Assembly (NCBI GenBank): GCA_044229265.1 | Contig: JBGATK010000006.1 | Location: forward strand, 8,232-72,231 | Reading direction: 5' to 3' | Length of the DNA stretch: 64,000 nucleotides | Source of the DNA: Minisyncoccia bacterium | GTDB taxonomy: Bacteria > Patescibacteriota > Minisyncoccia > Phycocordibacterales > UBA9973 | In this document: in pieces, positions 7,230-18,860 of the stretch | Numbering within the stretch: position 1 is the stretch's first letter | Layout of the letters: the number at the start of each line of letters is the position of its first letter | The notes under the pieces: generated by a model | What the model saw: the letters and a program-made list of their open reading frames with translations, nothing else | What the model was told of the DNA's origin: nothing | Database searches by the model: none | Made by a program: the position numbers and the translations under genes

Positions 7230-7301
7230 AAAATATTATTAAAAAACATTATTATTAAATTAAATCCTTCTTCGCATAAAGCTTCGAAGGACAAGAAAAT
7301 T

Positions 7302-8654
7302 ATGACAACAAAAGGAACAATCAAAAAAGTTATCGGGCCAGTTGTGGATGTAGAGTTTACAGGAGAATTGCCAGAAGTATATTCTGCACTCTGGGTAGAC
7401 AACAATGGTAAAAAGCTCGTGCTCGAAGTAGAGCAACACATTGGCGCCGGAGTAGTGCGTGCAGTGGCTATGGACACTACAGATGGCCTCGCTCGCGGAA
7501 TGGAAGTCTCTACAGATGGCATGCCCATCTCTGTGCCAGTCGGCAAGGAGACTCTCGGTAGAATTTTTAATGTTCTTGGAGATGTCATAGATGATGGATC
7601 ACCTGTAAAAGCAACAACTTCACCTATACACCGCAAAGCTCCAGATTTCGTCTCTCAAGCTACGAAAGTCGAAATCCTTGAAACTGGTATCAAGGTTATC
7701 GACCTTATTTGTCCTGTGCTGAAGGGTGGCAAGGTGGGACTCTTCGGAGGTGCCGGCGTGGGTAAGACTGTGGTCATCCAAGAGCTCATCCACAATATTG
7801 CATCAAATCACGGAGGCTACTCTGTGTTCGCCGGTGTGGGCGAGCGTACTCGTGAAGGAAATGACCTCTACCACGAAATGAAAGACAGTAAAGTTCTAGA
7901 CAAAGTGGCCATGGTCTTCGGTCAGATGAACGAACCACCAGGTGCTCGTATGCGTGTGGCACTTTCTGGTCTCACGATGGCAGAATATTTCCGTGATGAA
8001 GAAGGCAAGGACGTTCTATTTTTCATCGACAATATTTTCCGCTTTACACAAGCTGGTTCTGAAGTGTCTGCTCTCCTTGGCCGTATTCCATCGGCTGTGG
8101 GTTATCAGCCAACTCTCGCGACAGAAATGGGAGCGATGCAAGAGCGCATTACTAGTACAGACAAAGGCTCTGTGACCTCAGTGCAAGCCGTGTATGTGCC
8201 AGCGGACGACCTTACCGACCCTGCACCTGCGACTACATTCGCTCACCTAGACTCTACTGTGGTATTAAACCGTTCTCTTACTGAGATAGGTATTTACCCA
8301 GCTGTGGACCCGCTAGACTCTAGTTCTACTATTCTCGACCCGAATATCGTCGGCAAGGAACACTATGAAGTTGCTCGTGAAGTTCAAAGAGTTTTACAAA
8401 AATATAAAGACTTGCAAGATATTATTGCAATCTTGGGTATGGAAGAGCTTTCAGAAGCAGACAAAGAACTCGTGGCTCGCGCTCGTAAAATTCAAAAATT
8501 CCTCTCTCAGCCATTCTTCGTGGCAGAGCAATTCACTGGTGCACCGGGTGTGTATGTACCACTTTCAGATACGATTCGTTCATTCAAAGAAATATTGGCT
8601 GGTAAGCATGATGACAAAGCAGAAGGAGATTTTTATATGAAGGGTGCGCTTTAA
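7302..8654 (+). CDS. atpD: F0F1 ATP synthase subunit beta
   Basis: P-loop [15 protein letters not shown]-like region, 450 aa. Confidence 0.95.
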
Positions 8655-8660
8655 AAATTT

Positions 8661-9107
8661 ATGTCTAAACAGTTTAAATTGAAAATCATAACACCAGAGA
8701 AATTGATCCTAGAAGATATGGTAGATCAAGTCACTTTACCTACAATGGAAGGCGAGATAACTATTTTGGCGGATCATATTCCGATAATCGCAGCTCTGAA
8801 ATCCGGTGATATCGTGGCTAGTGCTTTTGGTGAATATATTCCTATGGCTGTGTCTGGCGGATTTGTGGAAGTTAAAATTGGCGAAAATAATATGACGGAA
8901 GTCGCGGTGCTCGCAGACTTTGCTGAGCATGTGGCAGATATGACAGATGAAAAAATAGCACAAGCAAAAGCCAAGGCCGAAGAATTAAAGAAACAAATGG
9001 AAAACAAAGACCATGTGGACTTTGAGCATTTCGAATCCGAACTCGAACGCTCCCTCACCAGAGTTAAGATAGCGGATAAGTGGAAAACTAAAAAATACAG
9101 AAGATAA
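8661..9107 (+). CDS. atpC: F0F1 ATP synthase subunit epsilon with a charged C-terminal extension
   Basis: beta-sandwich N-domain motifs, operon position, 148 aa. Confidence 0.85.
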   Translation: MSKQFKLKIITPEKLILEDMVDQVTLPTMEGEITILADHIPIIAALKSGDIVASAFGEYIPMAVSGGFVEVKIGENNMTEVAVLADFAEHVADMTDEKIAQAKAKAEELKKQMENKDHVDFEHFESELERSLTRVKIADKWKTKKYRR

Positions 9108-9128
9108 AATTTCTGGTATAATTATTTT

Positions 9129-9563
9129 ATGGAAAATTTAATTATTTCTAAATTTAGAAAATGGTCTCTACCTTTTTCACGTTTCGCTATATTTTTAATA
9201 TATTTTTGGTTTGGTATTTTGAAAGTTTTAGGTTACAGCCCTGCAAACCCACTAGTAGATGCATTATTACAACAAACAATGCCGTGGATGACGTTTGCTA
9301 CTTTTATATTATTCTTCGGATGGTTTGAAGTTTTGATAGGTATTTTGTTTTTATTTCCGCGTTTTACAAGAATCTCTGTAGTATTAATTACACTTCATTT
9401 AATAACTACAATTATGCCACTTTTTTTGTTAACAGAATCTTCTTGGCAATCATTTCTAATTCCTACTCTGGAAGGGCAATACATAATTAAAAATGTTTTG
9501 ATTATTTCTGCTGTTATGGGCATTTTTGCTCATACGCATATTCTTAAAAAATATAATAAATAA
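9129..9563 (+). CDS. DoxX-like integral membrane protein
   Basis: four predicted TM helices, no catalytic motif. Confidence 0.5.
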   Translation: MENLIISKFRKWSLPFSRFAIFLIYFWFGILKVLGYSPANPLVDALLQQTMPWMTFATFILFFGWFEVLIGILFLFPRFTRISVVLITLHLITTIMPLFLLTESSWQSFLIPTLEGQYIIKNVLIISAVMGIFAHTHILKKYNK

Positions 9564-9672
9564 TCAAGTGTTATTATTTTTTCTATGCTAGTATATTTTT
9601 ATGAGTAAACCCACACACTTATTTTAAAATGATATTTACAAATGATTATTAATATAATAAAAAAATAAGTGT

Positions 9673-17555: not shown

Positions 17556-17615
17556 ATGCTACTGTGCCCTTCGTAGCTTTTGCGAAGTAGGGTCAACAGG
17601 AAGTTTATTAAATAT

Positions 17616-18197
17616 ATGAAAAAAATTATTGAATTAAATACAAAAAAAGAAATAGCCTTTGTAAGGTCAGATTTACCGATGATGGTGCATGGGGTAGAGC
17701 ATTCTGGTGCATCACTCCTCTCTATAACCATAGCAACCATTTTGCATGCAGGTGGTGAAAAGCTTTGTATTTTTACTGCTTATCCTATGGCAAAAGATGA
17801 ATTCTTGGCCGAAGTATCAAACCCTGAAGATGTATTTTATTTAGAGAATTTTGAGGATTTAACTAAGGCTAATAATTTCCAGACGATAATTGTAGAAAGT
17901 GGTAATATTGAATTGTTCAAAAAAGTTATAGCTGAAAAGGAATTATTAGGGAATAGAATTGTATTTATTAAAAATATTGAAACAATAAATCAGCCTACTT
18001 TAGAAAAATTGCAGGATTATGATTTTATGGTTTCTGGTGATTTTAGTACAAATATTTTGCAGAAAGATTTTAATGATTTAGAATACAAGACAAAAATTTT
18101 CCTTTCTCCACTTTCTCCGTTTATCGTTCCTGTTTTGGCGAAGTATCAAGCTTTTTTACAAAAAGGAACAGAAGAAAAAATTATTATTATTTCTTAA
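17616..18197 (+). CDS. hypothetical protein (193 aa), possibly co-transcribed with the upstream Cys-rich gene
   Basis: ORF with a leader hairpin related to the atpD/dnaK leaders. Alternative start at 17580. Confidence 0.5.
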   Translation: MKKIIELNTKKEIAFVRSDLPMMVHGVEHSGASLLSITIATILHAGGEKLCIFTAYPMAKDEFLAEVSNPEDVFYLENFEDLTKANNFQTIIVESGNIELFKKVIAEKELLGNRIVFIKNIETINQPTLEKLQDYDFMVSGDFSTNILQKDFNDLEYKTKIFLSPLSPFIVPVLAKYQAFLQKGTEEKIIIIS

Positions 18198-18705
18198 AAT
18201 TCTCGAAAAATAATTTCTCAGAAATACTATCTATTTTATTTGTTGTAATTATTACGAGCTCGGTGGTAAGGCCCAAATCTTTTTTAATATTTTCAAAAAG
18301 ATATTCATATGGAAAAGGGGAGATCCAAGCAGAATTTTTGAGGCACACAAAGCCAGCTTTTTTGAGGAGGTATCTTAGGCTCTCCCGCTCGGCTTTTCTA
18401 CTCTCTGGTAAATCAAGAAGTATAATACGCCAAAACCCATCCCAATTTGGGTTTACTAGAGCTTCTTCGCCAGAGACAAGTAGGCTATTTAAGCGTTTTT
18501 TACCCTCTTTAGTGAGGCGGGCATAGCTTTGGTGTTCTGACTCATGTAGCTCTGCCAAACCTCCTTCTACGAGGTTTTTGAGGCTTCTAGCGAGGGCGTA
18601 TTTGGATTTAGTATTATCTTTTTCTTTTAAAAATTCTAAAGCTACGGCTTGCTTTTCGCCTAGTTTTTTAAGGATTTTTTTGGAAAAGTCGTTTTTACTT
18701 GACAT
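18187..18705 (-). CDS. PaaX-like winged-helix transcriptional regulator, divergent from dnaK
   Basis: N-terminal wHTH, C-terminal WDGFWRIILLDLPE..R..LRYLLKKAGF..LKNSAWISPFP pattern typical of PaaX-family C-domains. Confidence 0.55.
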   Translation of the reverse strand: MSSKNDFSKKILKKLGEKQAVALEFLKEKDNTKSKYALARSLKNLVEGGLAELHESEHQSYARLTKEGKKRLNSLLVSGEEALVNPNWDGFWRIILLDLPESRKAERESLRYLLKKAGFVCLKNSAWISPFPYEYLFENIKKDLGLTTELVIITTNKIDSISEKLFFENFKK

Positions 18706-18770
18706 GTGGATATCGTATCATATATACTCTATTTATACAAGTATTTCGCGAACGCGAAAAAAGAGTAAAA

Positions 18771-18814
18771 TGTCAAAGGGCATCTTTGACACATAAAATT
18801 ATTAACCATTATAA
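18771..18814 (+). promoter_or_regulatory. dnaK promoter (TTGACA-17-TTATAA) with inverted-repeat operator TGTCAAAG-N5-CTTTGACA overlapping the -35
   Basis: IR at 18771-18791, -35 at 18786-18791, -10 at 18809-18814. Second palindrome TTTCGCG-AA-CGCGAAA at 18744-18759. Confidence 0.5.
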
Positions 18815-18860
18815 ACTAATTTATCCTTCGTCGCTAAAGCTATGAAGGACAAGAAAACAT

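Follow-up and report, generated by a model that had tools for sequence, protein, structure and literature searches.

A small palindromic element before atpD and dnaK in a Patescibacteria genome, probably a recently inserted member of a dispersed family

Several classes of short palindromic repeat have been described in bacteria. REP/REPIN sequences are repeated, extragenic palindromes of 20-40 nt that occur in tens to hundreds of copies per genome, carry GTAG/CTAC at the foot of the hairpin and are mobilised by RAYT/IS200-like Y1 transposases (PMC3116915); the same work cites the small dispersed repeats (SDRs) of cyanobacteria as an unexplained class. Rickettsia palindromic elements (RPEs), of ~100-150 bp, are restricted to Rickettsia (reviewed in PMC10969869). 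Here we describe two copies of a hairpin of 30-31 nt in 64 kb of a low-GC genome (~33% GC; Minisyncoccia contig JBGATK010000006.1), a stretch referred to below as the window: one copy lies in the spacer between atpG and atpD, the other in the leader of dnaK. Searches with DnaK and AtpD place the window in the Patescibacteria/Paceibacteria, close to Nomurabacteria. The SDRs mentioned above, attributed to Elhai and colleagues (2008), are said to be hairpin-forming sequences of 20-30 nt that occur within and between genes and can nest in one another, their mobility reportedly having been inferred from filled versus empty orthologous sites. Start codons of cluster K mycobacteriophages offer a further point of comparison, since many of them are preceded, at a few nucleotides' distance, by start-associated sequences, 13-bp motifs that form no hairpin and have a Shine-Dalgarno-like (SD-like) core.

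In our judgement the two sequences are probably recently inserted copies of a small (~30 nt) dispersed palindromic insertion element of REP-, SDR- or RPE-like character. In the searchable literature on palindromic repeats of Patescibacteria, on miniature transposable elements with inverted repeats (MITEs) of the Candidate Phyla Radiation, on SD and leaderless usage and on the core string itself, we found no description of the family.

The two copies in the window

The element consists of an outer stem of 6-8 bp, a conserved apex (T[T/A]CGC-TAAA-GCTAC) and a 3' CAAG tail. Its two main copies and the genes that follow them are listed here in order of position.

2668-9107: atpBEFHAGDC operon, which contains atpD (Pfam)
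7265-7295, forward strand: element copy 1, TCCTTCTTCGCATAAAGCTTCGAAGGACAAG, followed by AAAATT and the atpD ATG at 7302
7265-7270/7286-7291: outer stem of copy 1, with inner GC pairs at 7274-7275/7281-7282, apical loop ATAAA and the 3' tail CAAG at 7292-7295
7302-8654, forward strand: atpD (F1 beta subunit; Pfam), downstream of copy 1
18824-18853, forward strand: element copy 2, TCCTTCGTCGCTAAAGCTATGAAGGACAAG, followed by AAAACAT and the dnaK ATG at 18861
18824-18831/18842-18849: outer stem of copy 2, with inner GC pairs at 18833-18834/18839-18840, loop TAAA and tail CAAG at 18850-18853
18861-20756, forward strand: dnaK (Pfam and homologues), downstream of copy 2

Copy 1 thus sits 6 nt upstream of the atpD start codon and copy 2 lies 7 nt upstream of that of dnaK. 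An earlier note on this DNA had pointed out the similarity of the two, and when 7265-7299 is aligned with 18824-18857, 31 of 35 columns are indeed identical, with one 1-nt gap, and the aligned stretch stops 2-3 nt short of the atpD or dnaK start codon; a consensus of the two had no match in 100 dinucleotide-preserving shuffles of the window. The CCTTC...GAAGG fold that had been proposed for both is reproduced by RNAfold, at -8.4 kcal/mol (z -2.3) for the atpD copy and -11.6 kcal/mol (z -4.0) for the dnaK copy, and a covariance model of the family scores them at 51.4 bits (E 1e-15) and 53.1 bits (E 3e-16), respectively. One could ask whether the resemblance is due to chance, or to a convergence of A-rich translation-initiation regions, given that both sequences lie in A-rich pre-start regions and that such regions are similar across all genes of the window genome. 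The identity, however, includes a GC-rich palindrome, and the shuffles, the covariance scores above 50 bits and the occurrence of the same loop in independent copies elsewhere leave this explanation with almost no probability; we consider it already refuted.

Within the window, the consensus of the earlier note and looser patterns derived from it matched the two main copies alone, and a window-wide repeat search did not place the pair among its 20 largest families, those listed being AT-rich low-complexity sequence. Rfam returned no match at the gathering threshold for the whole window and nothing relevant at E<=10 for the two copies. The signature of an intrinsic terminator, a GC-rich hairpin followed by a U-run, was also absent: the hairpin is followed by CAAGAAAA, and a terminator scan was empty at both sites. 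The 3' side of the dnaK copy contains a TATG variant whose ATG, at 18842, opens a 20-codon open reading frame (ORF; 18842-18904) overlapping the dnaK start out of frame. This ATG is probably incidental, because TAYG is a common polymorphism in the family.

Filled and empty sites in relatives

That the two sequences are insertions is shown by their presence and absence between close relatives. At the dnaK site, a relative with a 95% identical DnaK (L105) lacks ~29 nt of hairpin between near-identical flanks, its empty junction reading TTATAAATTAA joined directly to ACGAATAAAATATATG, and the region upstream of its dnaK shares with the window the promoter-like boxes, the inverted repeats and the divergent PaaX-like gene described below. 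At the atpG-atpD spacer, ~31 nt of hairpin are missing from L108 (AtpD 95% identical) and L109 (91%), and L107 (AtpD 100%) carries an identical copy. The dnaK copy is present with 2 substitutions in L106, a 99% relative; a reading of these as compensatory was rejected, as folding shows a weaker stem (-8.5 instead of -11.6 kcal/mol). More widely, nearly all of 78 related metagenomic dnaK leaders lack the element and keep the TATACT block together with a TTCGYG-N2-CRCGAA inverted repeat. Taken together, these comparisons indicate that the empty state is ancestral and that both window copies are recent insertions, common to L106/L107 (99-100%) alone. The pairing, whose conservation in orthologous leaders the earlier note had made a test of its regulatory proposals, is therefore not conserved, both sites being empty in the 95% relatives.

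A further member in L106 lies at the 5' end of its PaaX-like gene and is absent from the window and from L105.

L106 9806-9839, minus strand: extra copy, CCTCCTTCGCTAAAGCTTCGGACGG..., to be compared with window 18690-18705

This copy sits just behind the former ATG of the PaaX-like gene and introduces a stop codon into the former frame, and a new ATG downstream of it restores the ORF (MKNQDFSKK versus MSSKNDFSKK). Judged by its distribution, it is the newer insertion, and the activity of the element would appear to be ongoing in this lineage.

In two other dnaK leaders (L045 and L033), a sister variant with the same apex and tail occupies the window position; its arms, GCCGCC/GGCGAGC, contain no SD-like sequence. 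Other, unrelated GC-rich hairpins were seen just before the dnaK ATG (within the 60 nt upstream) in L028/L029/L037, L048/L067, L052/L078/L080, L062 and L083, of the types CCCGAC..GTCGGG, CCCCGC..GTGGG, CCCCGA..TCGGG and CACCCTGA..TCGAGGGGT. This suggests that the spot in the dnaK leader is an insertion hot spot, or that leader hairpins have been gained there repeatedly.

The sequence that is conserved before dnaK lies upstream of the insertion.

18699-18791, forward strand: conserved dnaK control region, upstream of the insertion and not part of the element
18699-18728, forward strand: strong promoter-like TTGACA-N18-TATACT, its TATACT block conserved in orthologous leaders
18745-18760: first inverted repeat, TTTCGCGAACGCGAAA (TTCGTGGTCACGAA in relatives), conserved across orthologous leaders, unlike the hairpin element
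18771-18791: second inverted repeat, TGTCAAAG-N5-CTTTGACA
18187-18705, minus strand: gene for a PaaX_M-domain protein, divergent beside dnaK here and in ~58 of 80 related dnaK loci

The PaaX-like protein may be a heat-shock repressor specific to this lineage, with the first inverted repeat as its operator. One could also look for an operator in the element itself, with the TCCTTC-N-GAAGGA inverted repeat, which does lie near the dnaK promoter region, bound by a transcription factor common to both genes. We hold this to be highly improbable: the atpD copy is operon-internal, at a distance of 6 nt from the start codon, the element is absent in close relatives, and the conserved repeat at 18745-18760 is the better candidate for a dnaK operator. 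Moreover, the arms vary, and it is the asymmetric loop, the bulge and the one-sided CAAG tail that are conserved, the opposite of what a dimeric operator would require.

The family beyond the window

A scan of one genome per species, with arms and tail fixed, gave 24 pattern matches, of which ~8 are true members. The element occurs between rpsJ and rplC of an Azambacteria metagenome-assembled genome (MAG; L019), 4 nt before the rplC ATG, and between rsmH and an ftsL-like gene of a Paceibacterota MAG (L005). It is also carried by two Saccharibacteria MAGs and one Falkowbacteria MAG, within an ORF in two of the three (L013, L023), and by a Bacteroidota MAG (L009) as two tandem units; nested copies, one within another, are found in L006 and L020. 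Of the remaining pattern matches, those in four Poribacteria MAG contigs (L003, L004, L010, L018) share a different conserved sequence, ..TCCTTCGCTGGATAGCACCTGAAGGACAAGAAAATTAGTCAGAAGTA.., and the rest look like chance. When a covariance model built from 12 copies was run over 1.24 Mb of related sequence, it added copies in the C-terminal tail of a DnaK (L084) and in other ORFs (L028, L060). Copies inside ORFs are in frame, in linkers or tails, and add ~10-11 residues. The one in TrmD lies in the interdomain region, where it splits the Pfam match in two, and others lie in RsmH, in the PUA-methyltransferase linker of RsmE, at the GrpE N-terminus, in the DnaK C-tail and in the C-terminal tail of TfoX. 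In an alignment of DnaK C-termini, the tail is too variable to show the L084 copy as an insertion. The suggestion of a leader-borne repeat family, made in the earlier note, has held up, given the further copies in other Patescibacteria, a Bacteroidota MAG and viral contigs from metagenomes; family members stand ahead of unrelated genes as well as within ORFs. As a separate observation, the AtpD homologues of some relatives contain brief in-frame insertions whose appearance suggests a hairpin origin: P0212 has 'LPAQAG' twice, P0234 has 'NPSSSSGQGAKK' and P0177 has 'LPAGTLAKEGGAGL'.

The apex alone (TTCGCTAAAGCTWCGRAGG or CTACGCTAAAGCTAYGGCG) is found in 25 stretches of IMG/VR viral contigs that range from 33 to 71% GC, and these metagenomic contigs contain the core TTCGC-TAAA-GCTACG. 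Several of them, IMGVR_UViG_3300017528_000210 for example, carry multiple copies, in some cases as adjacent inverted doublets (L130, L116). The viral copies are mostly co-oriented with transcription and often follow directly after a stop codon, among ordinary phage genes such as those for terminase and portal. A scan of the viral contigs with AT-type arms had no match; a cultured-phage collection contained no copy, and a plasmid collection gave two chance-level matches alone (E 0.4).

Across these sources the family consensus is (C/T)CC(T/G)CC-T(T/A)CGC-TAAA-GCTAC-GG(A/C)GG(G/A)-CAAG, of which the window arms, TCCTTC/GAAGGA, are an AT-rich version (CCTCC/GGAGG in the consensus form). The best-conserved stretches of sequence are those of the apical loop, bulge and CAAG tail. 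In 39 aligned copies, pairing holds in 90.3% of the cells of the outer helix (columns 1-6/25-30) and of an inner helix of 2 bp, and double-sided changes occur in 22 cells, against 7.3 +/- 2.0 in shuffles, none of 500 shuffles reaching 22. Pair 4-27, for instance, is UA in 27 copies and GC in 8, and pair 1-30 is UA in 17 and CG in 6. Shifting the partner by 1-3 columns lowers the pairing to 28-58%; with columns 4-9/25-30, the register on which the model had been built, covariation was no better than in shuffles. These alignments show a hairpin that compensatory changes maintain throughout the family, with the apical sequence held constant, and free arms on a fixed, asymmetric apex have the look of a protein-recognised hairpin, not that of a dimeric DNA operator.

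How, then, does the element compare with the classes described above? It resembles REP/REPIN sequences (PMC3116915) in being a short, imperfect, dispersed palindrome whose hairpin is kept while the sequences of subfamilies differ, in often lying between operon genes or after stops, and in occurring both as singlets and as inverted doublets (viral L130 and L116); with a hairpin of 30-31 nt, present as 2 full and 1-2 degenerate copies in 64 kb, it falls within the 20-40 nt of a repeated palindrome. It differs in that family members also occur in ORFs, even though the window copies are extragenic, and in that CTAC is internal, between the inner stem and the 3' arm, instead of at the foot of the hairpin. 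Copy number is low in the 64 kb of genome seen, compared with the tens to hundreds per genome of REPs. Furthermore, the family is spread across phyla and into viral contigs, and no RAYT was found linked to it among the ~50 window ORFs or beside the viral copies. A RAYT-like gene with flanking hairpins does exist in related Paceibacteria (L056/L057), although its hairpin is different from the element. With the RPEs (PMC10969869) the element shares in-frame insertion in unrelated housekeeping genes, tolerance in surface, linker or tail regions and the lack of a known transposase. Yet at ~30 nt, or ~10-11 residues, it is much shorter, and it is common in leaders too; the in-frame placement at tolerated positions applies to the family, whereas the two main copies of the window are not in ORFs. 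Like the SDRs, it has filled and empty orthologous sites, at both window positions and at a third in L106; the SDRs come from different phyla and have a different sequence, and the likeness is one of description. MITEs are typified by terminal inverted repeats, a duplicated target site and a size of ~50-500 bp; the element, at ~30 nt, is far smaller, and no clear duplication is seen at its filled sites. The start-associated sequences of cluster K mycobacteriophages are confined to that one phage cluster, and no evidence links them with the element. We therefore file it under small dispersed palindromic insertion elements generally, and in none of the named families.

A mechanism can be sketched as follows. 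Both copies probably entered this Paceibacteria lineage after its split from the relatives with 95%-identical AtpD/DnaK, and each landed among A-rich sequence, at 6-10 nt upstream of a start codon. They would have been copied or moved in trans, probably by an enzyme with specificity for sequence and structure that recognises the apical loop together with the bulge on single-stranded DNA, and a single-strand HUH/Y1 transposase (RAYT- or IS200-type; PMC3116915) would be the most plausible class. Insertions that spared a protein linker, or that kept the A-rich start region free of pairing, would be the ones to survive. GAAGGA, SD-like as it is, would be no more than the AT-rich version of the GGAGG arm, staying paired and probably unused in a genome that largely does without SD and often without leaders, and any effect on the expression of atpD or dnaK, such as protection of an mRNA end by the stem-loop, would be secondary and not a conserved regulation. 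A screen of all loci for HUH...Y proteins had a sole match, the RAYT-like gene of L056/L057 (1000-1703 in both; Pfam Y1_Tnp 26.4 bits; HIHIL...YIHLNP), which in these related Paceibacteria is flanked on both sides by the different hairpin ACAAGGGTWACCCTTGT, a classical RAYT/REP layout.

One could go further and speculate that the element is an undescribed, phage-carried mobile element that crosses phyla, its apical loop read by a dedicated enzyme, and that it preferentially settles or is retained before Patescibacteria starts. In that position it would provide a portable leader, made up of a 5' stem-loop that is stable and an A-rich landing pad that stays open, where initiation in these genomes otherwise proceeds without SD or leaders; the whole idea is possible but doubtful.

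In a general census of GC-rich hairpins over 1.2 Mb of related loci, no sharp peak was seen beside start codons. The conservation of the apex from bacteria of 33% GC to viral contigs of 70% GC points to a specific trans-acting factor. On this evidence, small, streamlined Patescibacteria genomes still carry active miniature insertion elements, which remodel 5' leaders, displace start codons, as in the PaaX-like gene of L106, and add short peptides to housekeeping proteins. With sites that differ between relatives of 95-99% identity, the family also serves as a marker of very recent divergence.

Start codons, temperature and the weight of the evidence

The earlier note had likened the hairpin before dnaK to an RNA thermometer, and had offered shared post-transcriptional control as one explanation of its recurrence before atpD; on this reading the CCUUC/GAAGG stem would hide the only SD, melt on heat shock and so co-regulate dnaK and atpD. 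The arrangement invites such an annotation, in that dnaK is among the host genes, the minimum-free-energy structure pairs the GAAGGA found 10-11 nt before the AUG, and a dnaK 5' leader hairpin with an SD-like 3' arm recalls the ROSE/FourU thermometers. In partition-function folds at 10-55 C (in silico), however, GAAGGA has a probability of being unpaired of at most 0.03 in the dnaK copy and 0.2 in the atpD copy, and positions -8..+3 around the AUG are unpaired at 0.54-0.93. Instead of an SD or AUG sequestered in a marginally stable hairpin that opens at physiological temperature, the folds predict a stem that is too stable and an AUG that is free, and there is no match to ROSE, FourU or any other Rfam family. 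Orthologous heat-shock leaders should moreover conserve such a switch. The 95% relatives lack it both before dnaK (L105) and before atpD, and so do nearly all of the 78 dnaK leaders; in L045 and L033, where a sister copy precedes dnaK, neither arm is SD-like; and the same element stands before rplC, before an ftsL-like gene and inside ORFs, the downstream genes being functionally unrelated.

The use of SD sequences in the organism itself points the same way. Among 64 window genes, 5 have an SD core match of at least 5 nt at -20..-4, and two of the five owe the match to element copies; a control interval taken further upstream gives 2 of 64, and for SD 4-mers the counts are 10 and 9. No 16S rRNA 3' end, which would give the anti-SD of the host, was present in the loci examined. 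A -10-like box (TAnAAT-like) lies within 16 nt of the start in 24 of the 64 genes, which suggests leaderless mRNAs at these starts. Because SD motifs are not enriched and leaderless-type starts are present, GAAGGA does not appear to be a typical initiation signal in this organism. The comparative data have thus largely refuted the thermometer reading, which we regard as very unlikely, and the same observations leave shared control by SD occlusion unsupported; annotation of an RNA thermometer for dnaK, or of a post-transcriptional regulon that joins atp and dnaK, tempting as it is, would be wrong here. The stop codons of the window genes are TAA in 48 cases, TAG in 14 and TGA in 3.

Returning to the dispersed insertion element, we find that a number of points weigh against it. 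No target-site duplication is clear at either filled site when compared with the empty ones. No transposase is found among the ~50 window ORFs, and none beside the viral copies, whose neighbours are ordinary phage genes. The copy number appears low, unlike that of classical REPs, with 2-4 copies per 64 kb here and ~1 per 100 kb in the 1.24 Mb of related sequence, where most of the ~16 strong matches had themselves served to train the model. Some of the copies in the set were obtained by patterns that fix the arms or the core, which biases the variation that can be seen, and the controls for covariation do not remove relatedness between subfamilies. Finally, ~8 of 11 intergenic Patescibacteria copies end 1-4 nt before an ATG, in the orientation of the gene, and this start-proximal, co-oriented placement could reflect selection for function, beyond mere tolerance.

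The last point leads to an alternative in which the element has been exapted as a leader module, kept for the benefit that a stable stem-loop and an unpaired A-rich tract bring to expression. It might shield the 5' end of the dnaK mRNA, or of a processed atpD-atpC mRNA, from exonucleases, uncouple atpD from atpG, or act as a ribosome standby site or SD. Besides the placement of the intergenic copies, this alternative gains from the AUG region being unpaired in the folds, from hosts that include the highly expressed atpD, dnaK and rplC, and from the different hairpins acquired independently at the same place in dnaK leaders (L028/29/37, L033/45, L048/67, L052/78/80, L062). The co-orientation of most viral copies and their frequent position directly after a stop codon fit it too, and REP-type stabilisers of E. 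coli act directly after stop codons. On the other side, neither site is conserved beyond the 99-100% relatives, the substitutions in L106 weaken the stem without compensation, copies also occur in ORFs and in reverse orientation, and the genome shows no SD usage. We judge the alternative unlikely on balance. Start proximity as such fits two accounts, a filtering of insertions that spares copies with short spacers and an open A-rich start, or a real benefit from a stem-loop at the mRNA end.

Two weaker matches to the family are present in the window.

17569-17587, minus strand: degenerate member of the family, matched in part, CTTCGCAAAAGCTACGAAG; 18.6 bits and, for the window by itself, E 8.5e-4
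49060-49095, forward strand: possible old, degenerate in-frame copy, ACCTTCTTCACTAAAATTTTGCTCGAAGAACAAAAA, inside ORF 48949-49440, where it reads TFFTKILLEEQK

The first corresponds to a sequence at 17567-17587 that had been proposed as a third copy of the leader. It does match the family, and it is kept in L106, but it covers only 19 of the 34 model positions (6-24), lies on the minus strand and lacks both the outer stem and the tail, and so is a degenerate relative and not a third leader. ORF 15792-17555 ends ahead of it, and the ATG at 17616 follows it. The second, at 15 bits (E 0.017, covariance model), is weak and may be due to chance. The 193-aa hypothetical gene at 17616-18197 and the partial element before it (window 17556-18197) are present in the window and in L106 and not in L105, which has a different hairpin, CCCCTTCTCatttccagGAGAAGGcGGGG, at the equivalent place (3200-3245). 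ORF 15792-17555 contains an internal 74-nt direct repeat (16525-16598 and 16972-17045); together with ORF 20835-23075, it encodes one of two large proteins with matches to a treble-clef zinc finger (zf_Tbcl_2), and the product of 20835-23075, which adjoins dnaK, is a TraG/VirD4-like coupling ATPase.

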